45,861 nt of DNA, from NCBI GenBank assembly GCA_963752595.1, contig CAVVYZ010000012.1, positions 1-45,861 of the forward strand, read 5' to 3'. A program made the translations under genes and the position numbers. The stretch comes from an uncultured delta proteobacterium. Lineage in GTDB: Bacteria > Desulfobacterota > Desulfomonilia > UBA1062. Positions 25,281 through 45,861 of the stretch are shown here, one piece after another (positions within the stretch are counted from its first letter, which is position 1; each line of letters starts with the position of its first letter). The notes beneath the pieces are model-generated. The model was not told the origin of the DNA and did no database searches. It saw only the letters and a program-made list of their open reading frames with translations.

Positions 25281-26783
25281 ATGACCAACGGTACGACTAC
25301 CCTTAACCAACTTGAATCCCATCTCTGGGAAGCCGCCAATATCCTGCGCGGCCCGGTGGATGCCGCCGACTTCAAGACCTACGTCTTCCCGCTGCTCTTC
25401 TTCAAGCGCATCTCGGATGTGCATGACGAGGAATACGCGGCCGCGCTGGCGGAATCCGGCGGCGACGAGGAATACGCCCAGTTCCCGCAGAACTACCGCT
25501 TCCAGATTCCCGGAGGGCTGCCACTGGAGCGATGTGCGCGCGGTCACGACCAACGTCGGCCAGGCGCTGCAGAAGGCCATGCGCGGCATCGAGAAGGCGA
25601 ACCCGGAAACGCTCTACGGCATCTTCGGCGATGCGCAGTGGACCAACAAGGACCGCCTGCCCGATTCGCTGCTCCGCGACCTCATCGAGCACTTCTCGCG
25701 CATCAACCTCGGCAACCAGGCGGCGCAGGCGGACATCCTCGGCCAGTCCTACGAATACCTGATCAAGAAGTTCGCCGACCCACGAACAAGAAGGCGGGCG
25801 AGTTCTACACCCCGCGCTCGGTCGTGCGGCTGATGGTCAACATCCTCGACCCCAGGGAAGGCGAGTCCATCTACGATCCCGCCTGCGGCACCGGCGGCAT
25901 GCTGCTGGAGGCCATCCACCATGTCCGCGAGAACCACGGCGACGACCGCACGCTCTGGGGCAAGCTCTTCGGCGCAGGAGAAGAACCTCACCACCTCCGC
26001 CATCGCCCGGATGAACCTCTTCCTGCACGGCGCGTCGGATTTCCAGGTCGTGCGCGGCGACACGCTGCGCCAGCCGGCGTTCTTCTCCGGCGACAACCTC
26101 GCCACCTTCGACTGCGTCATCGCCAATCCGCCCTTCTCGCTGGAGAAGTGGGGCGACGAGGTCTGGACCAGCGATCCCTACGGCCGCAACTTCGCCGGCA
26201 TGCCGCCGGCCAAGAGCGGCGACTACGCCTGGGTGCAGCACATGATCAAGTCCATGGCGCCCGACGACCGGCCGCATGGCCGTGGTGCTGCCGCACGGCG
26301 CGCTCTTCCGCATGGGCAAGGAAGGCGAGATCCGGCAGAAGATCCTCGGCATGGACCTGCTCGAAGCCGTCATCGGCCTCGGGCCGAACCTCTTCTACGG
26401 CACCGGCCTGGCCGCCTGCATCCTCGTCTTCCGCCAGCGCAAGGCGAAGGACCGGAAGAACAAGGTGCTCATCCTCGACGCCTCGAAGGAGTTCAAGACC
26501 GGCCGGGCCCAGAACGAACTGCTGCCCGAGCACGTCGAGCGCATCTACGGCTGGTATCGCGACTACAAGGACGTGGAAGGCGTCGCCCGCGTGGTCACGC
26601 TGGACGAGATCGCCGCCAACGACCACAACCTGAACATCCCGCGCTACGTCGAGCCGAAGATCGAGCAGGAAGTGCTCACGGTGGAGGAGGCGATGAAGCG
26701 GCTGCAGGAGAGCGCCGAGGCGGCCTTTGCGGCGGAGGAGAAGCTCGATCGCCATCCTCAAGCGGGAGGGTCTGCTGATATGA
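25281..26783 (+). CDS. hsdM: Type I R-M methyltransferase subunit M1 (NPPF; predicted m6A), frameshifted by indels
   Basis: LESHLWEAANILRG, GEFYTPRSVV, IYDPACGTGGML, IANPPF at 26125-26136; the true stop ...AILKREGLLI* overlaps the M2 start (ATGA). Confidence 0.92.
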
Positions 26784-28279
26784 CCGCCCGCATCACCCAG
26801 CAGCAGCTCGAATCCTACCTCTGGGGCGCGGCCGCGCTCCTGCGCGGGACCATCGACGCCGGCGACTACAAGCAGTTCATCTTCCCGCTGCTGTTCTACA
26901 AGCGGCTGTGCGATGTCTTCGACGAGGAGACGCAGACCGCGCTGGCGGAGTCCGGCGGCGACGACGAGTTCGCCGCCTACCCGGAGAACCACCGCTTCCA
27001 GATCCCGCCCGAGGCCCACTGGCGCGAGGTGCGGCAGGCCGCCAAGAACGTCGGCCAGGCGCTGCAGTCCGCCATGCGCGCCATCGAGACCGCCAACCCC
27101 GACAAGCTCTACGGCATCTTCGGCGACGCCCAGTGGACCAACAAGGACCGCCTCTCCGACGCCATGCTGCGCGACCTGGTCGAGCACTTCAGCACGCTCG
27201 AACTCACCGTCGCCAACCTGCCCGAGGACGAGCTGGGCCAGGGCTACGAATACCTGATCAAGAAGTTCGCCGACGACTCCGGCCACACCGCCGCCGAGTT
27301 CTACACCAACCGCACCGTCGTCCACCTGATGACCGAGATGCTCGAGCCGCAGCCGGGCGAGTCCATCTACGACCCCACCTGCGGCTCCGGCGGCATGCTG
27401 CTCTCCTGCATCGCCCACCTGCGCCGGCAGGGCAAGGAGTGGCGCAACGTCCGGCTCTACGGCCAGGAGCGCAACCTCATGACCTCCTCCATCGCCCGGA
27501 TGAACTGCTTCCTCCACGGCATCGAGGACTTCCGCATCGAGCGCGGCGACACCCTGGCCGAGCCGAAGTTCGTCCAGGGCGACCGCCTCATGCGCTTCGA
27601 CGTGGTGCTGGCCAATCCGCCCTATTCCATCAAGCAGTGGGACCGCGACGCCTTCGCCTCCGACCCCTGGGGGCGCAACCTCTACGGCACCCCGCCGCAG
27701 GGCCGGGCCGACTACGCCTTCTGGCAGCACATCCTGTGCAGCCTCGCGCCCAAGACCGGCCGCTGCGCCATCCTCTTCCCGCACGGCGTCCTCTTCCGCC
27801 AGGAGGAGGCGGAGATGCGGCGCAAGCTCATCGAAGCCGACCTGATCGAGTGCGTCCTCGGCCTCGGGCCGAACCTCTTCTACAACTCGCCGATGGAAGC
27901 CTGCGTCGTCATCTGCCGCACGGCCAAGCCCAAGGCGCGCAGGGGCAAGATCCTCTTCATCAACGCCGTGAACGAAGTCACCCGCGAACGCGCCCAGAGC
28001 TTCCTCACCGACGACCACATCGAGCGCATCGTCGACGCCTACCGAGACGTTCAAGGACGAGCCCGGCTTCACCCGCGTGGCCACGCTGGAGGAGATCCGC
28101 GCCAAGGACGGCAACCTGAGCATTCCGCTGTATGTTTCGCCCTGCTGAACCTCAAGGCGTGATGGAAAACGACAGCGGCCAACGGCGGACCTGCGTTGGA
28201 TCGAGTGCTCTCCGACTGGCTGGAAAGCTCGCGCCTCGTGCGGCAGTCATTGGCTGCCATCCTGAAGGAGCACCCATGA
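26780..28279 (+). CDS. hsdM: Type I R-M methyltransferase subunit M2 (NPPY; predicted m4C)
   Basis: MTARITQQQLESYLWGAAALLRG, AEFYTNRTVV, IYDPTCGSGGML, LANPPY at 27614-27625; C-terminus after indels ends ...AAILKEHP* with an ATGA overlap. Confidence 0.92.
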
Positions 28280-29832
28280 CCGGGAAACGGCGCATCTTCA
28301 TAAGCTCGGTGCAGAAGGAGCTTGCTCCCGAGCGCCGTGCCGTGCGCGATTTCATCGCAGGTGACGCGCTCTTGCGCCGCTTCTTCGATGTGTTTCTATT
28401 CGAAGACCTCCCTGCTTCCGGCCGGAGGCCCGATGAGCTGTACCTGTCGGAGGTGGACCGCTGCGCCATCTATCTCGGCCTGTTCGGCAACGAGTACGGC
28501 TACGAGGATGCAGCCGGGATCTCGCCCACCGAGCGCGAGTTCGACCGCGCCACTGCCATGGGCAAGGAGCGGCTCATCTTTGTCAAAGGCAGTGACGACA
28601 AGGCCCGCCATCCGAAGATGCAGGCCCTGGTCGCCAAGGCGAGCGCCCAGCTCAACCGCCGCCGGTTCGGCAGCCTCCCGGAGCTGACCGCACTGGTCTA
28701 TGCCGGTATCGTCGATTATCTCGTCGCAGGCGGCGCCGTGCGTACCCGTCCTTTTGACGCCGCTGCCTGCCTTGATGCCACGATAGACGGCCTTTCTCCG
28801 GAAAAGCTGGCCGATTTCCTTGCTCGGGCACAGCACAGCCGCGGCTATGCCCTCGGCCCGGATACGCCCATGCACAAGGCGCTGGCACACCTGAACCTGT
28901 TAGAAGGGGACCACCCCAGCCACGCTGCCGTGCTTCTCTTCGGGAAGGAGCCCCAGCGTTTTCTCATCAGCTCGGAGGTGAAATGCCTCCACTTCCACGG
29001 TACCGAGGTCCGCAAACCCATCCCCTCCTACCAGGTCTACCGGGGCACGGTTTTCGAGCTGGTGGACCAGGCCGTGGACTTCGTCATGTCCAAGATCAAC
29101 CGGAGCGTGGGCACCCGCTCCGGAGGTCCGACGGCGCCGGTGACCTATGAAGTGCCCCGCGACGCCGTTGCCGAGGCCATCGTGAATGCCATTGCCCACC
29201 GGGACTATGCCTCCGATGCCTCGGTCCAGGTCATGCTTTTTGCCGACCGTCTCGAAGTCTGGAACCCGGGCCATCTGCCCCCCACGCTGACCCCAGAGGC
29301 GCTCCGGCATCCGCACGCCTCCATCCCCCGGAACCCGCTCCTGGCCGACCCGCTCTTCCTCACCCGCTACATCGAGAAGGCCGGCACCGGCACCCTCGAC
29401 ATGATCGCTCTGTGCCAAGAGGCGGGCCTGGCTTCGCCCGGCTTCCGGCAGGACCACGGCCAGTTTGTCCAGACCCTTATGCGTCCGCCTGCGGCAGCCG
29501 CACAAGTCGCTGCAGAGGTCCTTACCGACGATAAACACCTCTGGGACTTTGCACTGGCCGGCATTGCCCGGGCCTTCCCGGCCGCCACCGCACAAGTCAG
29601 CGCACAAGTCGCCGCACAAGTCGCGCTCTTCTGCCGCGAGCCGAGATCGGCGCGGGAGATCATGGATCACTTGGAGCTGAAGCACTGGAAGACCTTCCAG
29701 GGAAACTACCTCAACCCGCTGATACAGGGCGAGCTGCTGGAGCGCACCATCCCGGACAAGCCCACCAGCCGCCTCCAGAAATACCACCTCACCGTTCAAG
29801 GACGGACCTGGCTCGCCGGGGGGAAGCCATGA
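28276..29832 (+). CDS. DUF4062 (TIR/deoxyribosyltransferase-like) + HATPase_c_4 (RecG C-terminal-like) + C-terminal HTH protein
   Basis: RIFISSVQKELAPER...YLSEVDRCAIYLGLFGNEYG...SPTEREFDRA (DUF4062-like); EAIVNAIAHRDY...DRLEVWNPG...RNPLLA...IEKAGTG; C-terminal LERTIPDKPTSRLQKYHLT. Confidence 0.8.
   Translation: MTGKRRIFISSVQKELAPERRAVRDFIAGDALLRRFFDVFLFEDLPASGRRPDELYLSEVDRCAIYLGLFGNEYGYEDAAGISPTEREFDRATAMGKERLIFVKGSDDKARHPKMQALVAKASAQLNRRRFGSLPELTALVYAGIVDYLVAGGAVRTRPFDAAACLDATIDGLSPEKLADFLARAQHSRGYALGPDTPMHKALAHLNLLEGDHPSHAAVLLFGKEPQRFLISSEVKCLHFHGTEVRKPIPSYQVYRGTVFELVDQAVDFVMSKINRSVGTRSGGPTAPVTYEVPRDAVAEAIVNAIAHRDYASDASVQVMLFADRLEVWNPGHLPPTLTPEALRHPHASIPRNPLLADPLFLTRYIEKAGTGTLDMIALCQEAGLASPGFRQDHGQFVQTLMRPPAAAAQVAAEVLTDDKHLWDFALAGIARAFPAATAQVSAQVAAQVALFCREPRSAREIMDHLELKHWKTFQGNYLNPLIQGELLERTIPDKPTSRLQKYHLTVQGRTWLAGGKP
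29587..29622 (+). repeat. 3 x 12-bp in-frame tandem repeat (NNCGCACAAGTC)
   Basis: ACCGCACAAGTC AGCGCACAAGTC GCCGCACAAGTC encodes TAQV-SAQV-AAQV; a fourth copy lies near 29497. Confidence 0.8.
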
Positions 29833-31052
29833 ACGCCGTGCTCCATCAGCTTGGCAGCCTCCGGCCCAACCCTGACTGGGCCAGCCTCCCGATCTTTGAA
29901 CGCAAGGGCTGGAAGCGTCTACCGTTCGGCAAGTTCGCAGACAGCATCAATGAACGGGTTGATCCTGCAAATGCCGCGGAGGAAAGCTACGTGGGCCTGG
30001 ACGATCTCGATCCCGGCAGTCTGCATATCCGGCGCTGGGGCAAGGGCAGCGATGTCATCGGCATCAAGCTCCGCTTCCGGAAAGGAGACATCATTTTCGG
30101 ACGCCGGAGGGCCTACCAGCGAAAACTGGCCGTAGCAGAGTTCGACGGGATCTGCTCGGCCCATGCAATGGTAGTCAGGGCAAAGCCGGACATGGTGCTG
30201 CCGGAATTCCTGCCGTTCTTGATGATGAGCGATAAGTTCATGAATCGGGCTGTGGAGATCTCCGTAGGCTCTCTTTCACCCACTATCAACTGGACTACGT
30301 TGAAGCTCCAGGAGTTCGACCTCCCACCGATCGAGCAACAACGACGAATCGTAGAAGTTCTTTGGGCTACGGATGATGTCATCCATTATGAAAATCATTT
30401 ACTTTATTCATCACATACCGCCTACGAGACGAAGGCTAATGATTTTTTCTTTGGCCATGATCAGAAGCATAGCTTATTTAATCCAAAATGGAATACGGTG
30501 CGGTTACAGGATGTCAATGATCCCAATTCGCCAATCCGATATGGAATTGTTCAGGTAGGAGCGTATTGCAAGTCAGGTATCCCAACTGTTGCGATCAAGA
30601 ATCTATCTGGTAATTTCAAAGATGATCTACATTATACAGCGCCTGAAATAGAAGCGCAGTATTCAGGTAGCAGGGTTAAGCCTAAGGATTTGCTACTCTC
30701 AATAAAGGCTACAATCGGTGAAGTTGCAATCGTGCCTGAATATTTTGAGGGGAACATTAGCCGAGACATTGCCCGAATTAGATGCAACTCGTTTGTTGAT
30801 CCTCGATTATTTCTTCACTTATTTCGATCTAATCGTTACAAATCATATATTGACAAGTATGTTGTTGGATCTACACGGAAGGAAATATCCATTCATCATC
30901 TTCGGAAATTTGAGGTCCCAATCCCGCCACCTAAAGCAGTTCAATACTTCCTTGAGTCTGTTGAGGAAATTTTAAAAACTTTTTCATCGATATATGCTCA
31001 TTCTAGGGCATCAATAGAATTAAGAAACAGTATTATCGGAGGAGTATTCTAA
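29829..31052 (+). CDS. hsdS: Type I R-M specificity subunit
   Basis: Two TRDs, each followed by a conserved-region-like helix (LPPIEQQRRIV; VPIPP); KGDIIFGRRRAY in TRD1 and DLLLSIKATIGEVAIV in TRD2. Confidence 0.92.
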   Translation: MNAVLHQLGSLRPNPDWASLPIFERKGWKRLPFGKFADSINERVDPANAAEESYVGLDDLDPGSLHIRRWGKGSDVIGIKLRFRKGDIIFGRRRAYQRKLAVAEFDGICSAHAMVVRAKPDMVLPEFLPFLMMSDKFMNRAVEISVGSLSPTINWTTLKLQEFDLPPIEQQRRIVEVLWATDDVIHYENHLLYSSHTAYETKANDFFFGHDQKHSLFNPKWNTVRLQDVNDPNSPIRYGIVQVGAYCKSGIPTVAIKNLSGNFKDDLHYTAPEIEAQYSGSRVKPKDLLLSIKATIGEVAIVPEYFEGNISRDIARIRCNSFVDPRLFLHLFRSNRYKSYIDKYVVGSTRKEISIHHLRKFEVPIPPPKAVQYFLESVEEILKTFSSIYAHSRASIELRNSIIGGVF

Positions 31053-34044
31053 TGTTCACAGAGTCAAGTACCGTCGAACAGATGATCCTCGATAGCGTTG
31101 CCGTCCAGCCCAGTAAAGAACCGGTTCCGGCGCATGATCACATGGCACCGGGCTGGGGCGAGTCCCTCGGACGACGAGTTGCGGCCGGCCCGCTGGGAGC
31201 TACCTGCCCGCCGCCCAGCTCCCGCGCCAGAGCGGCGACGTGATGGTGGAGCCGTGGGTGCGCGAGGCGCTCATCCGGCTCAACCCCGAGATCGCCGCCC
31301 AGCCCGACCGCGCCGACGAGGTCATCTACAACCTGCGGGCCATGCCTCCTCTCCGTGCAGGCCGACGGCCTGGTGCGGGCCAACGAGAACTTCATGGCCT
31401 GGCTGCGCGGCGAGAAGACCATGCCCTTCGGCCCCAACGGCGAGCACGTGCCCGTGCGGCTGGTGGATGCCGCCAACCCGGCCAACAACCGGCTCACCGT
31501 GATGCAACCAGTGGACCTACCAGGCCGGCGCGGTGGAGAAGCGGTTCGACGTGGTCTTCCTGGTCAACGGCCTGCCGCTGGTCATCGGCGAGGCCAAGAC
31601 GCCCACGCGCAGCGCGGTGACCTGGTTCGACGGCGCCTTCCAGATCAACGAGATCTACGAGAAGCAGGTCCCGGCCATGTTCGTGCCGAACGTCTTCTCC
31701 TTCGCCACCGAGGGCAAGCCTGTTCCGCTACGGCTCCATCCGCATGCCCATCGACATGTGGGGGCCGTGGCGCGACGAGGAGAACCAGGAGGAAGGCCAG
31801 CTGCACCACGTGCAGGCCACGGTGGAGAGCATGCTCCGGCCCGAGGTGGTGCTGGACATCCTGCAGAACTTCACCCTCTTCGCCACGGACAAGAAGCACC
31901 GGCGCATCAAGATCATCTGCCGCTACCAGCAGTACTACACCACCAACCAGATCGTGGACCGCGTGGTGAAGGGCTACCCGAAGAAGGGCCTGATCTGGCA
32001 TTTCCAGGGCAGCGGCAAGTCGCTGCTGATGGTCTTTGCCGCGCAGAAGCTGCGGATGCACCCGAAGCTGGGCAACCCCACGGTGATGATCGTGGTGGAC
32101 CGCATCGACCTCGACACGCAGATCACCGCCACCTTCAACGCCGCCGACGTGCCGAACATGGTCGGCGTGGCCACGCGCCAGGAGTTGCAGACGCTGCTCG
32201 GGCAGGACGTGCGCAAGGTGCTCATCACCACCATCCACAAGTTCGGCGAGGCCGGCGGCAGGCTGAACGAGCGCTCGAACATCATCGTGATGGTGGACGA
32301 GGCCCACCGCACCCAGGAAGGCGACCTGGGCCGCAAGATGCGCGAGGCGCTGCCCAATGCCTTCCTCTTCGGCCTCACCGGCACGCCCATCAACCGCGCC
32401 GACCGCAACACCTTCTGGGCCTTCGGCGCCGACGAGGACGAGAAGGGCTACATGAGCCGCTACTCGTTCCAGGACTCCATCCGCGACAAGGCCACGCTGC
32501 CGCTGCACTTCGAGGCGCCGGAGGTGAAGCTGAAGATCGACAAGGCCGCCATCGACGAGGCCTACAAGCAGATCACCGGCAACCTGAGCGAGCAGGACCG
32601 CGACGACCTGGCCAAGCGCGCCGCCAAGATGGCCGTGCTGGTGAAGAACCCCGAGCGCGTCCGCGCCGTGGTGAAGCACATCGTCAAGCACTTCCAGACC
32701 AAGGTGGAGCCGAACGGCTTCAAGGCGCAGGTGGTGGTCTTCGACCGCGAGTGCTGCGTGCTCTACAAGCAGGTGATGGATGAGCTGATCGGCCCGGAGG
32801 CCAGCGCCATCGTCATGACCGCCGCGCAGGGCGACCCGCCGGAGTGGAAGCAGCACGTCCGCGACAAGGACGCCGAGGAGAAGCTGCTCGACCGCTTCCG
32901 CGACCCGGCCGACCCGCTCAAGTTCGTCATCGTCACCAGCAAGCTGCTCACCGGCTTCGACGCGCCCATCCTGCAGGTGATGTATCTCGACAAGCCGATG
33001 AAGGACCACAACCTCCTGCAGGCCATCTGCCGCACCAACCGCACCTTCGGCCAGGAGAAGACCCACGGCCTGATCGTGGACTACATCGGCATCTTCGACG
33101 ACGTGGCCCGGGCGCTGGACTTCGACGAGAAGGCCGTGCAGCAGGTCGTCTCCAACATCGACGAGCTGCGCAAGGCGCTGCCCGTGCAGATGCAGAAGTG
33201 CCTGGCCTTCTTCCCCGGCGTGGACCGGACGCGTCGGCGGCTACGAGGGGCTGATGGCCGCGCAGCAGTGCCTGCCCAACAACGAAGTGCGGGACAAGTT
33301 CGCCGCCGAATACATCGTGCTCGGCACCATCTGGGAGGCGCTCTCGCCCGACCCGTGCCTCAGCCCCTACGAGAAGGACTACCGCTGGCTGACGCAGGTC
33401 TACGAGTCGGTGAAGCCGCCCAGCGGCAACGGCAAGCTGCTCTGGCACGCCCTCGGCGCCAAGACCGTCGAACTGATCAACCAGAACGTCCACGTCGAAT
33501 CGGTGCGCGACGACGTCGAGACGCTGGTGCTGGACGCGCAGGTGCTGGAGGAAATCCTGAAGGACGCCGATCCCGGCAAGAAGGCGCAGGGAGATCGAGA
33601 TCAAGCTCATCGCCCGCCTGCGCAAGCACCTGGGCAACCCCAAGTTCATCGCCCTGGGCGAGCGGCTGGAGAAGATCAAGGAGCGCCACGAGCAGGGCTT
33701 CCTCACCAGCCTGGAGTTCCTGAAGGCAGATCCTCGAACTGGCCAAGGAAGTCGTCGAAGCCGAGAAGGAGACCGATCCCGAGGAGGAGCGCGACCGGGC
33801 CAAGGAGGCCCTGACGGAGCTGTTCAACGAGGCCAAGAGCAAGAACACCCACATCATCGTCGAGCGCATCGTCGCCGACATCGACGAGATCGTGAAGAAG
33901 GTCCGCTTCCCCGACTGGCAGCACACGAGCCAGGGCGAGCGCCTGGTGCAGAAGGAACTCCGCCGCACGCTGCTCAAGTACAAGCTGCACACCGACCAGG
34001 AGCTGTTCGACAAGGCGTACGGCTACATCCGGCAGTATTACTAG
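31052..34044 (+). CDS. hsdR: Type I R-M restriction subunit (several indels)
   Basis: Nuclease RFDVVFLVNGLPLVIGEAK, Walker A WHFQGSGKS, VVDRIDLD, DEAHR, GLTGTP, LLTGFDAP, QAICRTNR; ends YGYIRQYY* at 34044. Confidence 0.93.
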
Positions 34045-34327: not shown

Positions 34328-35158
34328 TTAAGCTGCATCGGGCATACTCTCCCGATAACCGAAATAAATCTCATCCGGGGTTGATCTGTCAAGTTTAGAG
34401 TGTGGTCTGTGATGATTGTAAAAAGTCAGATAGCGTTCCAAGCCGCTCCTTGCTTCACTGACACTGTCATAGGCGTGCAGATAGACCTCCTCATACTTGA
34501 TGCTTCTCCAAAGCCTCTCTACGAACACATTATCACGCCGGCATCCTCTCCCGTCCATGCTAACGGCAATACCCTTTTCTTTCAAAAGATCAGTGAATTC
34601 CACGCTGGTAAACTGGCTGCCCTGGTCGGTATTGAAGATCTCGGGCGTGCCGTAGAGGCCGAAGGCTTCCCTCACCGCATCGATACAGAAATCTGTGCTC
34701 AGCGTATTAGATAGCCTCCATGAGAGTACCTTTCGTGTTGCCCAGTCCATTACCACGAAAAGATAGACAAAGCCCCGCTTCATCGGAATATAGGTGATGT
34801 CTGCTGCCCAGACGTGGTTTGGTCTATCTATCTTTATATTCCTAAGCAGATAGGGGTAGACTTTATGAGCAGGGTGACGCTTGCTGGTATTGGGCTTACA
34901 GTAAAGGGCATTGATGCCCATCTTTTTCATCAGAGTGCTTGTGTGACGACGACCGATCTTATGCCCTTCACGTCTGAGTATACTCATAAGCATGCGGGCC
35001 CCGGCAAAGGGATATTCAAGGTGCAGCTCATCAATCCTGCGCATCAGCACAAGATCGGAAGGCGTAGCCGGCCGTGGCAGGTAATATACGCTCGAACGCG
35101 GCAGCTTCAAGGTACGGCACTGTTTCGCTACCGGCATTTTGTGGCTGGGATTTATCAT
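34328..35158 (-). CDS. IS3 transposase OrfB (DDE integrase core)
   Basis: WAADITYIP, FNTDQGSQFTS, DNVFVERLWRSIKYE, YNHHRPH. Confidence 0.95.
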   Translation of the reverse strand: MINPSHKMPVAKQCRTLKLPRSSVYYLPRPATPSDLVLMRRIDELHLEYPFAGARMLMSILRREGHKIGRRHTSTLMKKMGINALYCKPNTSKRHPAHKVYPYLLRNIKIDRPNHVWAADITYIPMKRGFVYLFVVMDWATRKVLSWRLSNTLSTDFCIDAVREAFGLYGTPEIFNTDQGSQFTSVEFTDLLKEKGIAVSMDGRGCRRDNVFVERLWRSIKYEEVYLHAYDSVSEARSGLERYLTFYNHHRPHSKLDRSTPDEIYFGYRESMPDAA

Positions 35159-35451
35159 TTTCTTGCGCTCAATCGACCCACTTTGATGAGCGCATGCTCA
35201 AAAAAATCATTCTCCAGGGTCAGCTCTCCAATCTTGGCATGCAGATCCTTTAAGTCCGGCTCCTTGTCCTTCTTAGAACCGTCAAAGACCGTAGATGCAC
35301 CATCGAGCATCTGCTGCTTCCAGTCCGATATCTGGTTGGGGTGTACATCAAACTGTTCAGCTAACTCCACTAGCGTTTTATCCCCCTTGATTGCTGATAA
35401 TGCCACTTTCGCTTTGAAACTTGCCGAGTGATTCCGTCGCTTCCTCTTCAT
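35155..35451 (-). CDS. IS3 transposase OrfA (HTH)
   Basis: RRNHSASFKAKVAL...ELAEQFDVHPNQISDWK...LHAKIGELTLENDF; T7 slippery run at 35200-35206 on the minus strand. Confidence 0.93.
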   Translation of the reverse strand: MKRKRRNHSASFKAKVALSAIKGDKTLVELAEQFDVHPNQISDWKQQMLDGASTVFDGSKKDKEPDLKDLHAKIGELTLENDFFEHALIKVGRLSARK

Positions 35452-35575: not shown

Positions 35576-37315
35576 TCAACCCATGATAGATGCCTGTGCC
35601 CTGATAAGGTCATGAAGTGTTACAATGCCGACAATCATTCCTGTCTTTTTATCAAGCATGATGATGCATCCATGGGGGGATTCGATGAACCTGTTGCCCA
35701 CCTCTCGGACGGTCTGTTCTGGATGGCAGTTCACAGCGGCATAGAATTCAGGGACAGCCTTGTGTTTGAGAATGGATTCGATCTGCTCACGGGTGATAAG
35801 CTCGATGCGTTCATTATTCAGCACTAATGGAAAGCAGTTGTAAGGGTGTCTTTCGAGAAATTCTCTGAGATAGCTCTCAGACAGGCTCCTTACTATGACC
35901 GGATGAGGATTGGCAATGGACGAGATGGGAAGATTTTGCCAACTCCTGATATCGATGGGTGGCCTGATTTTTATCAGCTCATGCCCATCTTGCAGGAGTA
36001 TCGAGTCGTAAAAGTTTGCTTTTGTAGCAGCGTGTGAAATGACTACACTGATGATTGTCCCTACCATCAGGGCAGGGACAATGGAAAACTGGTGGGTCAT
36101 CTCGAACACGATCAGAAGAGAGGTAAGAGGTTCTCTGACTACAGTCCCGAGACAGGTGCTCATTCCCACTGCCGACAGCACGATCCTGTCTGATGGTGAT
36201 AGGGGCATCCAGAGACCGGCGATCCCGCCGATGAAATATCCGCACATGCCTCCGATGAAGAGCAAGGGCGAGAATACCCCGCCACACCCCCCGAAGGCGA
36301 GAGAGACGACGGTTGCCAGGACCTTGGCGACCACGAGAATCCCTGCAACCCACCAGATGAAATTATTGTCCAGGGCATTCGAGAGATCTTGATACCCCAG
36401 ACCGAAAACACCCAGCTTCCCGGTGGTATAAAAGCAGCAGACCCCGATTATCCATACGATGAAGCCACCACAACAGGGTTTGAGCCAGGCCGGAATAGCA
36501 TGCTGTCTCCTGGCCTGCAGCCGGAAAAAGAGAGTCATACGCTGAAAGATCACCCCGATAAGTGAAGCAACGACTGCGACAATCGGAACGATGAGATAAT
36601 GCACCGGAGATATCGAATCGACTGATGGGAGTCTGAAAGCAGGCTGCTCGCCGATGAGAGCGAATACGACAAATGCACCGATTACCGAAGAGAGCACTAT
36701 TCTGCCTACGAAACGACTGTTGATATCGCCTACGATCTCTTCGAGAATAAAGGCGATTGCTGCCAGAGGTGCATTGAAGGCAGCAGCTATCCCAGCTGAA
36801 GCGCCTACGATGACGGCGCTCCGCCGCCGCCGTACCGGTGTCCCGAGAGAACCTGAGATATTTGATGCAATGCCCCCGCCGATATAGATTGTGGGGCCTT
36901 CACGACCCAGGCTGGCACCGCCGCCTATACTTAAGACGCCGGCAATAAATTTGACGATAACAGGAGCCCAGGGGATATATCCCACTTCCTTCCAGTAGGC
37001 TTCCTTGAGTTGTGGGATACCGCTTCCCGCTGCATCCGGGGCATACTTTGACAGCAGGATGCCGACTAGGAGCGATGATCCCATGATCAGGAGGAAGCTC
37101 GAAAGTAGAAAGAGGGGTAGTGAGTAAGAAGAAAAGACAACATAGGTGTGCTCATAGGCAAGATTGAGCAGGACCATGAAAGCGACCCCCGATGCTCCTG
37201 CCGCCAGTGCATAGATGATTGTCTGCACCAGGGTACGGGTATTATCCGGGAGACCCCGTAAAAAAGAAATAACTGAGTATAAAGAATCTTTCCTGCCCAT
37301 TTCCTCAATGTTCAT
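35576..37315 (-). CDS. ClC-family Cl-/H+ antiporter with C-terminal CBS domains
   Basis: GSGIP, GREGP (gating Glu), FILEE (proton-Glu position), GGVFSP, FYDS; CBS tail ending VGIVTLHDLI. Confidence 0.92.
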   Translation of the reverse strand: MNIEEMGRKDSLYSVISFLRGLPDNTRTLVQTIIYALAAGASGVAFMVLLNLAYEHTYVVFSSYSLPLFLLSSFLLIMGSSLLVGILLSKYAPDAAGSGIPQLKEAYWKEVGYIPWAPVIVKFIAGVLSIGGGASLGREGPTIYIGGGIASNISGSLGTPVRRRRSAVIVGASAGIAAAFNAPLAAIAFILEEIVGDINSRFVGRIVLSSVIGAFVVFALIGEQPAFRLPSVDSISPVHYLIVPIVAVVASLIGVIFQRMTLFFRLQARRQHAIPAWLKPCCGGFIVWIIGVCCFYTTGKLGVFGLGYQDLSNALDNNFIWWVAGILVVAKVLATVVSLAFGGCGGVFSPLLFIGGMCGYFIGGIAGLWMPLSPSDRIVLSAVGMSTCLGTVVREPLTSLLIVFEMTHQFSIVPALMVGTIISVVISHAATKANFYDSILLQDGHELIKIRPPIDIRSWQNLPISSIANPHPVIVRSLSESYLREFLERHPYNCFPLVLNNERIELITREQIESILKHKAVPEFYAAVNCHPEQTVREVGNRFIESPHGCIIMLDKKTGMIVGIVTLHDLIRAQASIMG

Positions 37316-37481: not shown

Positions 37482-38691
37482 TCACCGGTTATCATGCTCG
37501 ACAGCATCGTTCAGCCGGTCCTGAAAATCCGGTATGGCTGCACTTATCCTTACCCATGCACTCATCATTGGAATGCCGATGGGGTCTGATGAGAATTTTC
37601 GCGTGGCCTCCTTGAGCGAGCTCACGAATGCCTCTGTTGCCTCGATCTCGCTGTGGCGGTCATATGAGATCCCGTTCAGAAGAGACAGCGCATTGTATTT
37701 TTCAATGGCGAGCCGGGATTCCTCGATGTAGGAGGTGAACATTGTCCTGAAGAAGGAATCGCTAAAGACCATGCCTCCCTGGCTTAAGATCCGTAGCAAG
37801 GTCTCGGCGATATCCGTGGCCATAAGGTTGAGCCCTGCGCTGGAATCGATTTTTTGGAGCCCTTGATGCTTGTGCTCATAATTTTCAGCGATCTCGACCT
37901 GGCAGATCCGGTTTGGAGCGGTCCGGTGATATACTTCGTTGAGCATTGATACTTCCAGACCCCAGGTCGGAGAGATGCGGATGCCGCGGGCAATAGTGGA
38001 GAGCATGGCAAACTCTCCCGAGAGTGCATACCTGAACGACCCCAAATATTCGAGGAAGGGGTTGTAGCCCACGATCCGTTTCAAGGTATTGATAACAGGG
38101 AGGTAGAAGAGCCTCGTAACCCGGCCATAGAGTCTGTTCGTCACCCGGGCGTAGTACCCCTTGCTGAAATCATAGTCGAGTGCTGGGTGTACTACAGGGT
38201 AGATGAGCCGGGCAAGGATCTCCCGGGAGTAGTTTATGATGTCTGTATCATGCAGGGCGATGGCGTCCACGTCCTTATCGGCCAGGATGTAGCCAAGTGT
38301 CATCCACACGGACCGCCCTTTGCCGGGTACTTCCAGCTTGAAATCATTGCCCCTGAGCTCCTTATAGAGTGCTTGCAGCCTGGGGCCGTCATGCCAGACG
38401 ATCCTTACTCCGGACGATACCTCCGCCATGATCTTCTTCACCCGTTTGAACTGACCTTCATCTGCTCTATCGAGAGAGAGCACGATCTTATCGAGGTACG
38501 ATACCTGCTTGAGCTCGGAAAGGATCTTGGGCATGGCCGGGGTATCGAACTCCGATACAAGGGCAGGCAGCAGCAGGACCATCTTGCGTTTTGTAGATAT
38601 CTCATAGAGCTCGTTTTCAATCTCTCCCACCGGTCTTTGCCGTAGTTTCTGCAGAGTTGCTATCATGCCGTGCTGATAGAAAATCCGCCAT
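37482..38691 (-). CDS. gpgS: Glucosyl-3-phosphoglycerate synthase (GpgS-type glycosyltransferase)
   Basis: True start MADFYQHGMIATL (1-nt indel near 38680) after AGGAG; GKGRSVW, ALHDTDI, KGYYARV, YGRVTRL, FRYALSGEF, WGLEV, YEHKHQ. Confidence 0.72.
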
Positions 38692-38702
38692 AATACTCCT
38701 CC

Positions 38703-39949
38703 TTACTTCCAGATTTGTATGAGATAGTCCTTCAGGGCTTCGAAGGACCTGGACCTGTTCCTCAAAGAGCGCCTCAGCCTGAGCGAATCCTTATCCTTGA
38801 GCTCGTTCACCAGGGATGCGACCCTGGCGTAATAGAGGGGGACCATGGTGTTCAGGAGCTTCATCCGCTGGCGGGGCGTCGAGTGAAAGGCGTTGGCATA
38901 CCGGTAGACGGTCCGTACCCAGGTATCGACGGGCAAGAGGAAATCCTCTTTGCCTGCTGTCATGGGCCAATGCTTTGATGATTGCCAGATCCTTTTCTTC
39001 CAGGATTTGCTGCCATATGCCGCCGAAGTTCCAGAACCCGGTCTGGAAGTACTCGATGAGATCATCCTGATTAATCTCAAAGGCCGGCGGCTCCTCGTGA
39101 TGGGTAATCGCCTAGCGTGGGCACATCGCGAAGGCATTTGGATCTGTTTCCAGTAATCTTCATGTATCTCCATGAGCTGGAAGATGGTCCCCACCACCTG
39201 CCGGTACATGGGCCCGAGGTCTGCGGACGGGTCTTTCTGGCCGTGGATCTTGACACCAAGCCTTGCCTGGCAGATATTGAACCCGCCTACGATGGCGTTG
39301 TGGTCATCCAGATGTCGATTCCGAACCGCGCCATATCGGTCTCCCAGACATTTCCTGGTCGAGGTAATGCTTCACGAGCTTGAGGAAAGCCCGAAGTCCC
39401 CGCCGATAGGCTGGCGGATCGCATCCCGTACAGGGAGCGGGTGAGATTGTAGGCGATGGTGTTGGTGATGGTGGCATCGAATTTGTAGCGAGATAGTCGG
39501 GCGCGACAAAATCATAGCCTTCCAGTACCGGATCAATGAGATTCTTGACCCATAGTGGTGATGATGGAGATAAGGTCGGAATCAAATACTGCCACAGCCT
39601 TGGGTTTCAGGAAGGCAGCCACCTCGAATACGGCCCGGAGCGCCGAGCCTTTGCCGGGAAGGCCCCGATAGACGGTCACGATCTTCTCGATGTTGAAAGA
39701 TTTACCGTCATAGGATCTGGCGATGTCGCGGGTATCGTCGGTGGAGCCGCCGTCGGAGATCATGATCAGTGCACGCGCATCGGGGTAATGGGTTTCAAGA
39801 CCGCCGCAGATCGTCTTGACCACATGCCTGATGGAGCCGTCACAGTGGTAGCAAGGTATGCCGATGACGATATCGGCGTACCCGAGGCGCTCGATCTTTT
39901 CCCTGACATAGTCCCTGAGTGCTGTCGAGAACCTTCGTGTATCCGTCAT
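38703..39949 (-). CDS. GT2/Mgs-like glycosyltransferase, probable single-step glucosylglycerate synthase (multiple indels)
   Basis: ADIVIGIPCY...SDGGSTDDT...GKGSAL...DSDL, then YDFVAP, RQPIGGDFG, FGIDIWMT, KIH and MYRQVVGTIF spread over shifted frames. Confidence 0.65.
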
Positions 39950-40022: not shown

Positions 40023-40811
40023 TCAGCCGAGAAGGGCGCATACAGTCTCGTTCCAGCCTCTGCTACCTGGAAAAGGGGCCCGGATAAGGTTCGGCAGCTG
40101 GATGTCCTCAAAGGAGCCGCCCGGATTGGGAATCAGAACCGGTATGTCCACCTGTTTGAGCATCGGCAGGTCGTTGAAGCTGTCCCCTATGCCGATGCTC
40201 GTAACCTGAGATGAATGCACACTCTCAAGTATTGCCTTCGTCATCCTTACGGCTTTGCCCTTGTCGTTCTTATGGCTTATGAAATGAAAAAACCTCCCTC
40301 CCCGCGTTATCTTGATACCTGCATCCCAAGCTACCTCTTCCAGGTAGGGGAGCTGTTCTTCACAATCGATGAGGAACGGTTCCGTATACTCCCTGAATTT
40401 TGCCAGCCTTGCCGCCTGGAGGGATAATCCTGTCCGCCATGCGATCTCTTCTGCAGCCATGTCTCCGAAACCGCGGATCGGGTAGTCGTCTCCGAGTTGT
40501 TTCATGAACGATCTGATGCGGTGATAGGAAATGCCGAGCCGGATGCAAAGATAGTTATCGAAGCCCTTTTGGAACCTCAAACCCTTGTATGCGGCTGGAA
40601 AGAACACTCCTCCTCCATTTTCCACTATAAAAGGTTCGTCCATGCTCGTTTCTTTCCGGAATGCATCGACTTCCTTCCGAGTCTTGCTGGTGCACAGAAC
40701 CAGCGGTATGCGGTGATCCTGTATCTTCCTGAGGGCAGGGACCGCCTCCTCATAGGAGTAATCATCATGATTCAGAAGGCTCCCGTCCAGATCAGTGAAA
40801 ATTACCAACAT
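40023..40811 (-). CDS. Glucosyl/mannosyl-3-phosphoglycerate phosphatase (HAD IIB)
   Basis: IFTDLDGSLLNH, CTSKT, IVENGG, REYTEP, GGRFFH, DKGKAV, GDSFNDLPML. Confidence 0.88.
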   Translation of the reverse strand: MLVIFTDLDGSLLNHDDYSYEEAVPALRKIQDHRIPLVLCTSKTRKEVDAFRKETSMDEPFIVENGGGVFFPAAYKGLRFQKGFDNYLCIRLGISYHRIRSFMKQLGDDYPIRGFGDMAAEEIAWRTGLSLQAARLAKFREYTEPFLIDCEEQLPYLEEVAWDAGIKITRGGRFFHFISHKNDKGKAVRMTKAILESVHSSQVTSIGIGDSFNDLPMLKQVDIPVLIPNPGGSFEDIQLPNLIRAPFPGSRGWNETVCALLG

Positions 40812-40881: not shown

Positions 40882-42164
40882 TCATTTCTCTCCGGTCTGC
40901 TCTTGTTGCATCCGGGATAATATTTGAGTTGCAGGCAAGTATACGGAGAACCGGGTTCCTTTCCCGGGCTCACTCTCTGCCGTGTTGGTGCCGCCGTGAT
41001 CCTTGATAATCCCGTGAACTGTTGCAAGCCCCATCCCTGTGCCTTTTCCGACTTCCTTGGTAGTGAAGAAGGGCTCGAAGATATGATCCAGCACTTCAGG
41101 GTCAATACAGGCACCTGTATCTTTCACTGTAAGCTCCAGATACTCGCCTGCCGTCAGTTCAGTTTGAGGAGCTCTATCTTTAAGGTGTTTAGCAGAAAGG
41201 TGTATCTCTATAATGCCCGTCTTTGATTCAGGGGCATCCGCAGCATTTCTGCACAGGTTCGTGATGGCCTGTTGTATCTGTGTTGCATCGCCCAGGATCG
41301 TATCGGATACGGCATCGATCTGTGTATGGATTTCAATGGTGCTCGGCAGGGAGGATCTTAAGAAAGCAAGCGTCAGCGGCTTCATCTTTACCGGGCAGTT
41401 CGTTCTCTCTCTGCGCCTGTTGAAGGTGAGGATCTGCTGTATGAGATCTCTTTGCCGGTATGCTGCCTGGATCACCTCCTGAAGGATCTGATGAGAAGAT
41501 GATCCTGGATCGGTATCCTCCGGAAGCGTCTCGGCGTTGATGACAATCGGAAAGAGGGTATTGTTCAGATCATGTGCTATCCCCTCTGCAAACCCGCCGA
41601 GGGCTTCCATTTTCCTGGCCTGGATGATCTTGGACTCGAGATCTGCCTTTTCTTTTTCCGCCTGCTTGCGATCCGATATCTCCTTTTTGCGCTGCTCGTT
41701 TCTTGCCGACAGTTCGTTGTCCGTTCTCTTACGATCTCGTCCAAATGGTCCCAGTGTCTCCGGAGTTCTTCCTTCTGTCCGCAGGCCTGATCATTGATCG
41801 CGTCACGTTCCATCAATGCTTTTTCTAGGCTGTCCAAGAGAAGGATGACCAGATGTGCCATCACGGCACCGGCAAGCAGAGTTATCATCGTCGATGCCAT
41901 TATGTAGAGCACTCTTTGTCCCGGCAGGATCAGGTACAGCTCGAAAACAGCCATAGCTACGAAAATACCTGCTGTGGTCCAGAGAAGAGCCTTGCGCCGT
42001 GTCCAGATGCAGAACAGCAGAGGCAATACATAAGTCAGCGGGAAGAATACTTCGTTAGAGATGACAAGACGAATCAGCCCCCAGGCAACGATGATCCCGA
42101 TCGTCATGGCCCAGGCAGCAGCTCCCGATGGTTTATGTTGTAGTAGTCGCAGAAGTTTTTTCAT
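40882..42164 (-). pseudogene. Degenerate membrane sensor histidine kinase (frameshift near 41700, internal deletions, no receiver)
   Basis: N-terminal TM helices; MEALGGFAEGIAHDLNN H-box, QAITNLCRNAADA, FEPFFTTKEVGKGTGMGL. Confidence 0.7.
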
Positions 42165-42370
42165 GGTTATAAAAATGGTCCTTTATCTTGTCGGAAAAGA
42201 AATACATTCTTCATCCAAGTCATCGATACATTGTGATCCGGTTGAAACGACCCCCACAGTTTTCAGTTGTTAAACCTTTGACCTGATTCGGATAGGATCC
42301 TTAATGGAAAATGAGTGCCGGGACTGGTACGCCCGGCACCATCGGAATCTTAAGAAAGAGCTTCAACGGT

Positions 42371-42413
42371 AAAAAAACAAAAAAGCCGCTATCCGTTACC
42401 TCCGGATGGCGGC
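42371..42413 (-). terminator. Intrinsic terminator overlapping the 3' end of the putative aptamer
   Basis: Minus strand GCCGCCATCCG-GAGGTAA-CGGATAGCGGC followed by TTTTTTGTTTTTTT. Confidence 0.85.
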
Positions 42414-42452
42414 CCGACCATCACTATCCTTCGGCATTGAGCCGAACCCTTG
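42408..42452 (-). ncRNA. Putative Na+/Li+ riboswitch aptamer (DUF1646- or nhaA-I-like motif)
   Basis: Minus strand AAGGGTTCGGCTCAATGCCGAAGGATAGTGATGGTCGGGCCGCC: TTCGGC/GCCGAA hairpin, a GUGA-capped small stem and a 3' TGGTCGGGCCGCC that I recall as typical of these motifs; it lies between a promoter and a terminator. Confidence 0.55.
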
Positions 42453-42467
42453 TTATCTTTACTTTGT

Positions 42468-42496
42468 TTTTTACAATAAGGGCGATGTCTTGTCAA
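42468..42496 (-). promoter_or_regulatory. Sigma70 promoter driving the riboswitch leader
   Basis: Minus strand TTGACA (42496-42491), 17-nt spacer, TAAAAA; the predicted start is ~10 nt before the aptamer. Confidence 0.6.
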
Positions 42497-42606
42497 GGCG
42501 GTTAATATAATATATGATCTTAACCTATTAATAAACAAGTATGTATTGATTAATATTCAAATGATTGGTATACAAATGAACAAAGATTCTTCGGGAAGAG
42601 AGACAT

Positions 42607-43119
42607 ATGGGTAGAAAGACCTTAGTAATAGCCGACATCATCGACAACCTGCGCCGGGTATTCCAGGTGGTCAACGAACAGTCCAAGAAGGCTGAGTTCG
42701 CGACCGGACTAACCGGCCCCCAACTCTGGGCCATCAAGATCATAGCCGATTCCGGCCCGATCAGGGTCTCGGACCTGGCCGGCAAGATGTACCTTCATCC
42801 GGCCACGGTAGTGGGCATACTCGACCGGCTCGAATCCCACGGTATGGTGGAAAGGGTTCGCTCCACGGATGACCGGCGGGTCGTGAAGGTTGATCTGACC
42901 GATTCCGGACATGAACTCGTCTCCAAGTCACCGGAGGTTGCCCAGGGCCTGCTCGTCGCCGGATTAGAAGTCCTGCCGGGCAAAGAACTCGAAAGCATTG
43001 CGACCGGGCTGGATCACCTTGTGAAGATACTGGGCGCTCAGAAGCTTCCGCCACAGCTGATCCTTTCACCGGAAGTCAATCTATCAAGGAAGAAAGCGAG
43101 GGCGATTCATAAAATGTAA
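42607..43119 (+). CDS. MarR family transcriptional regulator
   Basis: GLTGPQLWAI...VSDLAGKMYLHPATVVGILDRLESHGMVERVRSTDDRRVVKVDLT. Confidence 0.93.
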   Translation: MGRKTLVIADIIDNLRRVFQVVNEQSKKAEFATGLTGPQLWAIKIIADSGPIRVSDLAGKMYLHPATVVGILDRLESHGMVERVRSTDDRRVVKVDLTDSGHELVSKSPEVAQGLLVAGLEVLPGKELESIATGLDHLVKILGAQKLPPQLILSPEVNLSRKKARAIHKM

Positions 43120-43256
43120 AAATTGAGTGGATTGGGACGCCTATGTTTTCTCCGCGTCGGTTTCACTTAGGAGAAAACCGTCTTTTGTTTGGAAGGGATA
43201 AATAATTCTGAAGAGGAGAAGCTGTTCATTCTACTACGGAAGTTATGTGAGGAATT

Positions 43257-43735
43257 ATGAAATTGACGGGGAAACTTGTGAATATTCTAAAGGATCGTAA
43301 GGCATTATTTTCCTTGTTCCTTTATTTGGCCCTACTGGTTGGTTCCGGTATTTACTGGAGTCTGGATCTTCAAAAGAATGATACTGCCGGAATCTCGAAG
43401 GAGCGGAGCAGGATTACTACCGGGCTGCCCGGAAAATTCTGGATAAAACGATAGACACAAAAGGGAAGGGGTATACTGTTGAAAAGGGAGCTACCTTTTC
43501 GGGCCTGCTGAAAGAAAACGGCGTGCCCAAGGAGGAAGCGCTGTTCATAAACAATAAAACAAAATCCATTTTTGATTTTTTCAGGACCCCGCCGGGAAAC
43601 GAGATTCGATTGATTATCCGCTCGAAATCAGGATCTCATCAAGATTGATCACGAGATTTCCGACCTGGAATATCTTGAGATAAAAGTTCTGACGACCGGA
43701 TTACAGCGCTCAGGATTGAGAAAGATGAAGAGTAG
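43257..43735 (+). pseudogene. Fragment of an M23/OapA-like peptidoglycan peptidase N-terminus
   Basis: TM anchor, then in a shifted frame YTVEKGATFSGLLKENGV...SIFDF...PGNEIRL, ending before any catalytic domain. Confidence 0.45.
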
Positions 43736-44091
43736 AATAGTATTACTGCTGCTTATAGCAACTGTTTCCAGAGACACCTGCTTTGATCGGCTGCCCTGGA
43801 CCGGTAAGCAATGGGATGTCGTGTAAAAAATCTGTGTCTGTAATAATCTTTATTTTATCCTTTCAAAGGATATCCTATCAGTTTCCTATTGGATGGGGCG
43901 GAGAAGGAAGGGATAATAATGAGAGGGATACACAAGTCATTATGCCTGCCAAGCTTATATACTTTCCATATTATTCCTGGTCCATTTTCATCTTCCATCA
44001 GCACAAGGTAGGCATCAAACCACTAAAATGTAAAAAGATGATAATTGTGAACTGTTTCTTAAAAGGGAAAATACGAAGTAATTGTGGAAAC

Positions 44092-45552
44092 CTAGTACTA
44101 CAGTAGTGGAGTAGGACATCGGACTTTGGATTCCTATATGCATTTTTTGAGAGAGAAACTCAGGAGAGGAGCACGCAATGGGAGAAGAAGACGAAGGACG
44201 ATGGAGCAGTGGTCTCAGGCTTTTGAAGAGATAGAGAGCCGAATACATCATCTGTTTGCCCGGTATCAAAGCCGAGAGCGGGCGATGCAATATATGAAGA
44301 GGACTCTGAGCCCTGTGGAGCGGAAGAATTCCTGGCAGCCGGCAGAGGCAGCGGAAGAGAAAGACCCTTACCGAATCCGGTATCTGCTGGGGAAAGCGGA
44401 CTGGGACCCGGACGCCATGAGAGATGATCTTATCGAGTACATGGGGATCACGTTCAGGATACTGATGGGGTCATTGTGGTGGATGAGACGGGATTCTTAA
44501 AGAAAGGCACGCGCTCGGCAGGGTTTGCCGTCAGTACAGCGGGACTGTGGCGAATTGAGACAGCCAGATCGGCGTGTTTGCAGCATATGTCACCGCTAGT
44601 GACCATATACTTATTGACCGGGAGCTCTATCTGCCCAAAGAGTGGATGGAAGATGCCAAGAGGCGGTCATCGGTAGGGATCCTGAGAGAGGAAGTTCAGC
44701 AAGCCGAAGCTTGCCCGGATGATGATAGAGCGGATTATCTTCTCCGGCCTTGCGTTCAAGTGGGTAGCCGGTGACTCCGTGTACGGCGATGACCGCAGCT
44801 TACGCATATGGCTTGAGGAGAGGGAAAGGCATATGTGTTTGCCGTGTCGGGAAAGGAATAAGTCTTTGTTGGATTTAACCGATACCGGGTTAGCGATATC
44901 CTCGCATCTCTGCCCAAGAAGGGCTGGTGAGGATGAGCGCAGGGGATAAATCGAAAGGACCGCGGATGTATAACTGGTTACTCCTTGAAACCAACTCCCC
45001 ATTACGCAAGGGATGGAAGAGATGGCTGCTGGTGAGGCGGAGCGTGAATGATCCCAAAGAGATTAAAGCACACGTTGCCTGCGCTCCTGCACAGACAGAG
45101 CTCTCCGAGCTCGACCGGATTGCCGGGGTCCGGTGGGCTATTGAGGTGAGCTTTGAGGATGCGAAGCAGGAGACCGGGCTTGACGAGTATGAGGTCCGGT
45201 CCTTTTCCGGGTGGTACCGGCACATACACATTCTAATGTTTGCCTATGCCCTTGGGAGTGTGCTCAAGGGGAGCGCCGGGAGGCGGTTAAAAAAACCAGC
45301 CTGTCAGCAAGGGGAGCCTTGCTCACTTCAAACGGCATTAAGTCTTGGGCTCCTGTCTCCCTTTCAACAGTGGGAGAGGATAAGGCAGACTCCTGTGGGA
45401 TCCTCCCTGAGGGAGAGTAGAAGCTTCCCAGAACTGATACTTACCTGGTCCCATTTCCAAAGGACTCATTGGGCCATTGCCAGGTATTACCATTACAAAA
45501 AACAACATGCCCTGGATTCACTGTCTGAAGCTTTACTACTGTGAGTACTCAG
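44092..45552 (+). mobile_element. Decayed IS701-family element
   Basis: Left end CTAGTACTACAGTAGT and degenerate right end ACTACTGTGAGTACTCAG; transposase fragments ERKNSW, WDPDAMRDDL, VDETGFLKKG, DRELYLPKEW, AGDSVYG, RWAIEVSFEDAKQETGLDEYEVR. Confidence 0.85.
44201..45544 (+). pseudogene. IS701 transposase pseudogene
   Basis: Split across at least 5 ORF pieces, with deletions and substituted consensus residues. Confidence 0.8.
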
Positions 45553-45861
45553 GGAAGGGGTGTAGCTATTTCAGGCACTCTTTTAAATAGACAGCATGCA
45601 TTAGAAAACAACTGATTCGCTATGTGGATCTGAGTGACTCAATATAATCCCTATGCAATTATTCGTCAAAACATCTTTTTCAAGATATAGCCGGGTTAAC
45701 AAAAAACAATGACCATGTTTTACAAACAGTGCACTCGCGATAGAATTTGCATCCGTCTTTATGGACGCGCTCCTTTGTGCCCATGTTTATCACAAGTGAT
45801 ATTAATGGGGGTGTTGCCGTCACAGGAGAGGCACTTGAAGTAATAACCGAATTTGCCGTAC

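Follow-up and report, generated by a model that had tools for sequence, protein, structure and literature searches.

White et al. (2022; PMC9646797) reported that most nhaA-I RNAs sense Li+ (Li+-I riboswitches), and that rare, terminator-bearing variants, described there from Deltaproteobacteria only, sense Na+ (Na+-II riboswitches). For the Li+-I RNAs, which are nhaA-associated and carry no terminator, the same work proposes translational control. Introducing C54U (mutant M4) into the D. propionicus switch widened its response to Li+, Na+ and NH4+. Position 54, located by comparing the wild-type and M4 templates, is the base immediately 5′ of the CGGGCC loop. The printed constructs also differ at the foot of stem P1, where pair 5 reads G5-C in all three Li+-I RNAs and C5-G in Na+-II; that this pair would be a second subclass difference is a reading of the present analysis and is not claimed in PMC9646797.

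The targets tabulated in PMC9646797 for 944 nhaA-I RNAs include otsA (16), a putative glycosyl transferase (5), a citrate-transporter-like protein (5) and mscS (3), and the authors suggested that trehalose-linked members may sense Na+. Weinberg et al. (2017; PMC5737381) noted rare signalling and peptidoglycan targets for nhaA-I, and Na+-I switches have been linked to other osmoprotectants (PMC9337991). Glucosylglycerate is a salt-driven anionic solute that replaces glutamate under nitrogen limitation in other bacteria (PMC5381378), and is made by GpgS(-GpgP) and Ggs routes (PMC3736172).

The stretch analysed here (the window) comprises 45,861 nucleotides from an uncultured delta proteobacterium. 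An Rfam search of the whole window returned an nhaA-I match (RF03057) at 42449-42404 on the minus strand, which scored 40.5 bits against a gathering threshold of 37 (E = 9.7e-05) and covered model positions 1-55 of 55; the only other Rfam match was a tRNA. This RNA is a genuine copy of the known cation-riboswitch family nhaA-I. A preliminary description, made from the letters alone, had seen a resemblance to both the nhaA-I (Li+) and DUF1646 (Na+) motifs. Searched with both models, the locus retained the first identity and lost the second: DUF1646/Na+-I (RF03071) was rejected, as its covariance model gave no match there at E ≤ 10.

Table 1. Features of the switch region and downstream genes (G000, this genome; other G numbers, related genomes; L numbers, switch loci).
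Feature	Position	Strand	Basis
Divergent MarR-family regulator	42607-43119	+	PF01047; 83% in G004, 73% in G001
Predicted sigma-70 promoter, TTGACA-17 nt-TAAAAA	42468-42496	-	Sequence; TTGAC kept in same-subtype copies
nhaA-I family aptamer	42404-42449	-	P1 with U5-A, AGG linker, P2 with CGGGCC loop, U54; Rfam and fold
Intrinsic terminator (hairpin 42415-42383, U-tract 42384-42371)	42371-42415	-	5′ arm shares bases with the loop and 3′ strand of P2
Membrane histidine kinase gene, split in two overlapping frames (41577-42164, 40882-41610)	40882-42164	-	HisKA, HATPase_c
gpgP/mpgP-family HAD-IIB phosphatase, intact	40023-40811	-	TIGR01486, 228.8 bits, cut-off 164.75
ggs-like GT2 glycosyltransferase, putative glucosylglycerate synthase	38703-39949	-	tblastn, three frames, to intact G004 orthologue
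gpgS-like glucosyl-3-phosphoglycerate synthase	37482-38691	-	NF040724; 93% to G004
ClC-family chloride channel/antiporter with CBS domain	35576-37315	-	PF00654, PF00571

The P1 foot of the window RNA is a pyrimidine-purine pair, as in the Na+-II construct, and at both compared positions (pair 5 and U54) the RNA equals M4. The overlapping terminator expected of Na+-II is present and its C54 is replaced by U. From Li+-I the RNA has U54, but it also has a terminator and no nhaA downstream; a search for NhaA in this genome (84% complete) gave no match at E<1e-20. Because U5-A and a terminator occur together with U54, the RNA misses one defining feature of each subclass and, judged by sequence, falls between the two that were tested without being exactly either. 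Covariation in P1 and P2 was examined in 126 distinct pyrimidine-purine copies among the matches listed, a set in which the search pattern and kinship inflate the pairing counts: P1 pair 5 was paired in 126/126 copies (shuffle mean 112.2, maximum 119), P1 pair 9 in 124/126 (76.8, 89) and P2 pair 3 in 126/126 (106.8, 113).

The promoter, structured RNA and U-tailed hairpin of the preliminary description were all recovered in place on the minus strand. A consensus promoter scan did not call the TTGACA-TAAAAA site, whose -10 box is without its last T. The prediction is nevertheless supported by conserved spacing, since TTGAC lies 43-53 nt 5′ of the aptamer in 12/12 same-subtype copies from this genome and its relatives (47 nt in seven of them) and at that distance in 0/8 other-subtype copies. 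In a wider sample, TTGAC occurred upstream in 19 of 123 copies, versus one in a control window, among the matches listed. A divergent promoter-like site at 42490-42518 (+; score 10 of 12) has a -35 box that overlaps that of the switch promoter, and marR stays together with the operon in G001 and G004. Given the overlapping -35 boxes, MarR could form a second layer of control over the switch promoter.

The terminator ends in a tail with 13 U in 14 nt and folds at -19.7 kcal/mol (z -3.84; equally stable shuffles 1/200); a consensus terminator scan did not call the hairpin, the stem of which is bulged. Because its 5′ arm recruits the P2 3′ strand along with the conserved loop, aptamer P2 and terminator cannot coexist. 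With the terminator formed, the leader reaches -31.9, against -21.1 when P2 is enforced, so the predicted default state is OFF. As modelled, this overlap is laid out as in a transcriptional ON switch, and the mutually exclusive arrangement proposed earlier is borne out by the re-pairing of the P2 loop and 3′ strand in the terminator fold. A second GC-rich hairpin lies at 42315-42340 (-), 30 nt past the terminator, and is partly kept in G004.

The kinase and solute genes are present downstream as the preliminary description had them, except that the kinase is split into two frames and ggs is broken by about 11 single-base indels relative to a relative's sequence. The assembly has many single-base indels, with 46 gap openings in the 3.7 kb over which contigs C12 and C14 overlap, and the breaks are therefore plausibly sequencing or assembly noise; they may also reflect decay of the locus. 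The end of C14, which overlaps window positions 42205-45861 at 96.9% and carries an identical switch, had been a candidate second genomic copy (L003). It was rejected as a duplicate of the window end, which leaves four distinct switch copies in this genome rather than five.

JGI assigns the name glucosylglycerate synthase to ggs homologues at 62-77% identity. The host is likely deltaproteobacterial, since close Ggs homologues are labelled Deltaproteobacteria/Syntrophaceae and a same-genus protein has cluster mates that carry the label Deltaproteobacteria. Against solved structures, the Ggs orthologue gave weak matches to mycobacterial GpgS alone (6 sequences, E about 1e-7), so the name Ggs rests on the source names together with gene context. 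The gpgS gene has a 394-aa frame open from 38666, with one indel in the first codons; its best family is NF040724 (E 2.2e-92), at 310 bits against a curated cut-off of 700, and the gpgS-operon product could be a related sugar-glycerate instead of glucosylglycerate. Spacers measure 70 nt (kinase-gpgP), 73 nt (gpgP-ggs), 11-36 nt (ggs-gpgS; 36 nt, or 11 nt to the homologous gpgS start) and 166 nt (gpgS-clc). In the window, clc is preceded by an extended -10-like site at 37329-37321, and it lies 3′ of the operon in 2/4 relatives with fully read regions; control of clc by the switch is uncertain.

Elsewhere in the genome, a second gpgP (5′-truncated) and gpgS, 79-85% alike and accompanied by neither ggs nor a switch, lie at G000:C8:5365-7407, where they are fused to unrelated high-GC DNA. 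An IS3-like element occupies window positions 34328-35451 (-), and other parts of the genome contain copies related to it. The window also holds what we take to be a broken transposase-like gene (44126-45544, +) and presumably type I restriction-modification-like genes interrupted by frame breaks (26276-33814, +).

RF03057 matches were found in 10/61 related genomes, and the pyrimidine-purine subtype accounts for 12 distinct copies in this genome and its relatives. Copies at L011, L012, L014 and L020 head the phosphatase or ggs gene, as does the window copy via the kinase; of the remainder, four head an NhaD/ArsB-like permease and three a Pal lipoprotein. A terminator test was passed by 9/12 subtype copies versus 1/8 other copies. 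Several of the relatives' copies that head the operon have a weak U-tail, with no terminator call at L011 and L020 and a weak one at L012 and L014. The genome also contains two pairs of a CBS protein and an NhaD/ArsB-like permease (G000:C26:11059-13024 and G000:C24:39280-41090), with a switch at the C26 pair only. Within the family, the G5-C subtype (L001:1640-1987 on G000:C1, L008, L010 and L013) heads an unnamed 115-aa membrane protein, behind which some genomes have a second switch and then a Pal lipoprotein.

The orthologous operon is intact in 12/52 family genomes (ggs 67% or more), and five of the 12 (G001, G004, G019, G034 and G112) have the switch immediately before gpgP-ggs-gpgS or ggs-gpgS. 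The order is switch-gpgP-ggs-gpgS in G019 and G034 and switch-gpgP-ggs-gpgS-marR-clc in G001; G004 has a divergent marR followed by switch-ggs-gpgS-clc, and its leader aligns with the window leader. A loose pattern search of 122 class genomes gave matches no commoner than a reversed control and was used solely as a pointer to G112. The remaining seven operons have no switch, no other Rfam element upstream at gathering score and a promoter-like site directly 5′ of gpgP; the solute genes thus do not require the switch. The link between switch and solute genes, drawn earlier from the co-orientation of kinase, glucosylglycerate genes and ClC, is therefore conserved in some relatives, whereas the kinase was rejected as part of the module. 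It adjoins the switch in no other locus examined, and its N-terminal part occurs in 2/122 class genomes, in G004 on another contig; by this comparison, the kinase was added at this locus in the present genome only.

A GTDB pattern search for the pyrimidine-purine subtype gave at least 121 loci with at least 128 copies, and a control search of metagenomes for the G5-C pattern gave at least 120 loci. Eighty loci of each were taken with flanks, and 75 (subtype) and 67 (G5-C) had at least 600 nt downstream; targets were scored within 2.5 kb downstream on the same strand, with Pfam applied to 72 and 68 first ORFs. The subtype records listed come from delta/Thermodesulfobacteriota, Omnitrophota, Elusimicrobiota, Verrucomicrobiota, Nitrospirota, Planctomycetota, Spirochaetota, Acidobacteriota and others. 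Among the matches listed, position 54 was U in 121/128 subtype copies and C in 7/128, and terminator-like platforms accompanied 85/125 subtype versus 8/116 G5-C copies, a count that left out seven copies with short flanks.

The contrast in targets is suggestive and not a test, because source (GTDB versus metagenomes) and taxonomy differ between the samples, and kin among the loci are not independent: among the matches listed, NhaA lay downstream in 0/75 subtype versus 21/67 G5-C loci, glucosylglycerate genes in 11/75 versus 2/67, GT20 trehalose-phosphate synthase in 19/75 versus 2/67 and MscS in 6/75 versus 0/67. Other targets of the 75 subtype loci listed were CPA (4), NhaD/ArsB-like (4), Na/Ca exchanger (3) and NhaB (1). 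The nhaA counts argue for a salt or osmotic role of the subtype rather than lithium detoxification. The 11 listed gpgS loci span three phyla (9 Verrucomicrobiota, 1 Acidobacteriota, 1 Thermodesulfobacteriota), and gpgS lies 61-231 nt downstream in eight of them; one of the 11 (L036) carries the Na+-II base C54, and a terminator call was absent in 10 of these 11 distant copies and present in the Thermodesulfobacteriota record only. Together with the five switch-headed operons in relatives, they uphold the connection between a cation switch and glucosylglycerate genes made in the preliminary description. Rising salt likely turns on predicted glucosylglycerate genes directly in several unrelated bacterial groups.

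Several listed subtype loci stand out individually. At L064:4070-5740, nhaB lies directly behind the switch; PMC9646797 states that the motif never occurs with nhaB. Recurrent targets outside the published table are SPFH/HflK at six loci (L040, L041, L047, L067, L068 and L079; five Omnitrophota) and small pentapeptide-repeat proteins at six (L078, L085, L086, L098, L103 and L109). Tandem switches, each with its own terminator, form triplets at L073:501-794, L091:3998-4306 and L104:879-1289 and a doublet at L139:298-466. Both aptamers of the doublet have C54 and would be tandem Na+-II, an arrangement not found according to Table 3 of PMC9481103.

We consider it rather probable that the window RNA is a transcriptional ON switch responding to intracellular Na+, with read-through into the predicted glucosylglycerate genes as salt rises. 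In this model the sequence, family membership, fold geometry and synteny are established here, and the start site, ligand, read-through and product are inferred. Going by the conserved -35 box, transcription would begin about a dozen bases 5′ of the aptamer. Folding predicts that, in the absence of ligand, the terminator prevails as the more stable structure and captures the loop and 3′ strand of P2; by extension from the tested D. propionicus homologue, transcription would then end at 42371. Cation binding would hold P1/P2 and block the terminator, permitting read-through into a presumed co-transcript of kinase, gpgP, ggs and gpgS. Judging from their families, GpgS with GpgP, or Ggs in one step, would then yield an anionic compatible solute. 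The Na+ model is favoured by an architecture shared with the Na+-activated D. propionicus switch (PMC9646797 and its supplement), and U54, the Li+-I state, counts against it.

By analogy with M4, the window RNA may be less selective in vitro than Na+-II. On an unlikely extension of this point, it would be a natural M4 equivalent, activated by Na+, Li+ and NH4+ alike and reading the total small-cation load. It has the M4 genotype at pair 5 and position 54, M4 responds to all three ions (PMC9646797), and U54 predominates among the subtype copies listed. However, the sequence departs from the D. propionicus RNA at many other bases, glucosylglycerate as a solute used under nitrogen limitation (PMC5381378) is a poor fit to NH4+ induction, and Na+ is likely dominant in cells anyway. 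U54 and the match to the nhaA-I model would also suit a conventional Li+-I riboswitch, inducing the solute genes in a lithium-stress response, and PMC9646797 raises possible Li+ control of trehalose synthesis. This seems very unlikely given U5-A where the three tested constructs have G5-C, the terminator platform, and the lack of nhaA downstream of the 75 subtype loci listed; the single NhaB among them is a partner that PMC9646797 denies the motif.

There is likewise only a slight probability that a real switch controls the inserted kinase only, or belongs to a decaying locus, with the solute genes transcribed separately or not at all. The kinase region puts 1.56 kb between terminator and gpgP and contains a weak terminator-like site (41862-41844), the kinase and ggs are broken, and the gpgP-gpgS copy on C8 is switch-less. 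Set against this, the spacers are short, the one between kinase and gpgP gave no promoter in a consensus scan, the switch itself is unbroken and has a strong tail, and the indel-rich contig overlap indicates that the breaks may be sequencing noise.

A broader proposal, to which we give not quite even credence, is that the P1-foot pair (pyrimidine-purine versus G-C), and not position 54, splits nhaA-I into a lithium-detoxification branch and a much larger sodium/osmotic one that spans multiple phyla. In Desulfobacterota-like bacteria, Verrucomicrobiota, Omnitrophota, Elusimicrobiota and further little-studied groups, the latter would directly turn on mechanosensitive channels, Na+ transporters and the synthesis of compatible solutes (glucosylglycerate, trehalose). 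The 'rare' Na+-II would then be a widespread RNA salt sensor, with this locus its first glucosylglycerate example. Control of these genes by the window switch would provide a direct ion sensor for glucosylglycerate synthesis. The natural sequences combine the stem base and terminator of Na+-II with the U54 of Li+-I, and their targets differ from those of the G5-C subtype; such combinations offer a cheap route to how RNA distinguishes Na+ from Li+.

The preliminary description had regarded cation-riboswitch control of glucosylglycerate synthesis as new. No paper linking nhaA-I or Na+-II switches to glucosylglycerate was found in the literature searched, which left subscription journals and the supplementary gene list of PMC5737381 uncovered, and the portions consulted of PMC9481103 and PMC11259077 hold nothing on glucosylglycerate as an nhaA-I target. 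The PMC5737381 supplement, which lists genes near nhaA-I RNAs, may already show the association. The claim is also narrower than first put, because PMC9646797 tabulates trehalose synthase and a 'putative glycosyl transferase', and the surprise is limited by the RNA family, the ON-switch mechanism and the trehalose link having been published.

Compared with the described GpgS-GpgP and Ggs pathways (PMC3736172, PMC5381378), the window likewise clusters gpgP, ggs-like and gpgS-like genes, with predicted enzyme products; riboswitch control of these pathways was not found in the literature searched. With Na+-I (DUF1646, RF03071; PMC9337991), it shares an ON switch operating by aptamer/terminator exclusion, and some Na+-I members control the osmoprotectant genes ablA, eam and dapB, but the RF03071 model does not match this locus and the loop sequence differs. 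It resembles Li+-I (RF03057; PMC5737381, PMC9646797) in passing the Rfam model, in U54 and in the same P2 loop, and differs in pair 5, the terminator platform and the absence of an nhaA target. With the D. propionicus 'hypo' Na+-II switch (PMC9646797) it shares the nhaA-I core, pyrimidine-purine P1 foot, promoter near the aptamer and terminator overlapping P2, and, going by the names of same-genus proteins, probably a deltaproteobacterial host. In contrast, the window has U54 where D. propionicus has C54, and heads solute-synthesis genes where the latter heads a hypothetical gene. Whereas terminator-bearing variants were confined to Deltaproteobacteria in PMC9646797, they appear here also in records of Omnitrophota, Elusimicrobiota, Nitrospirota, Planctomycetota and Spirochaetota.
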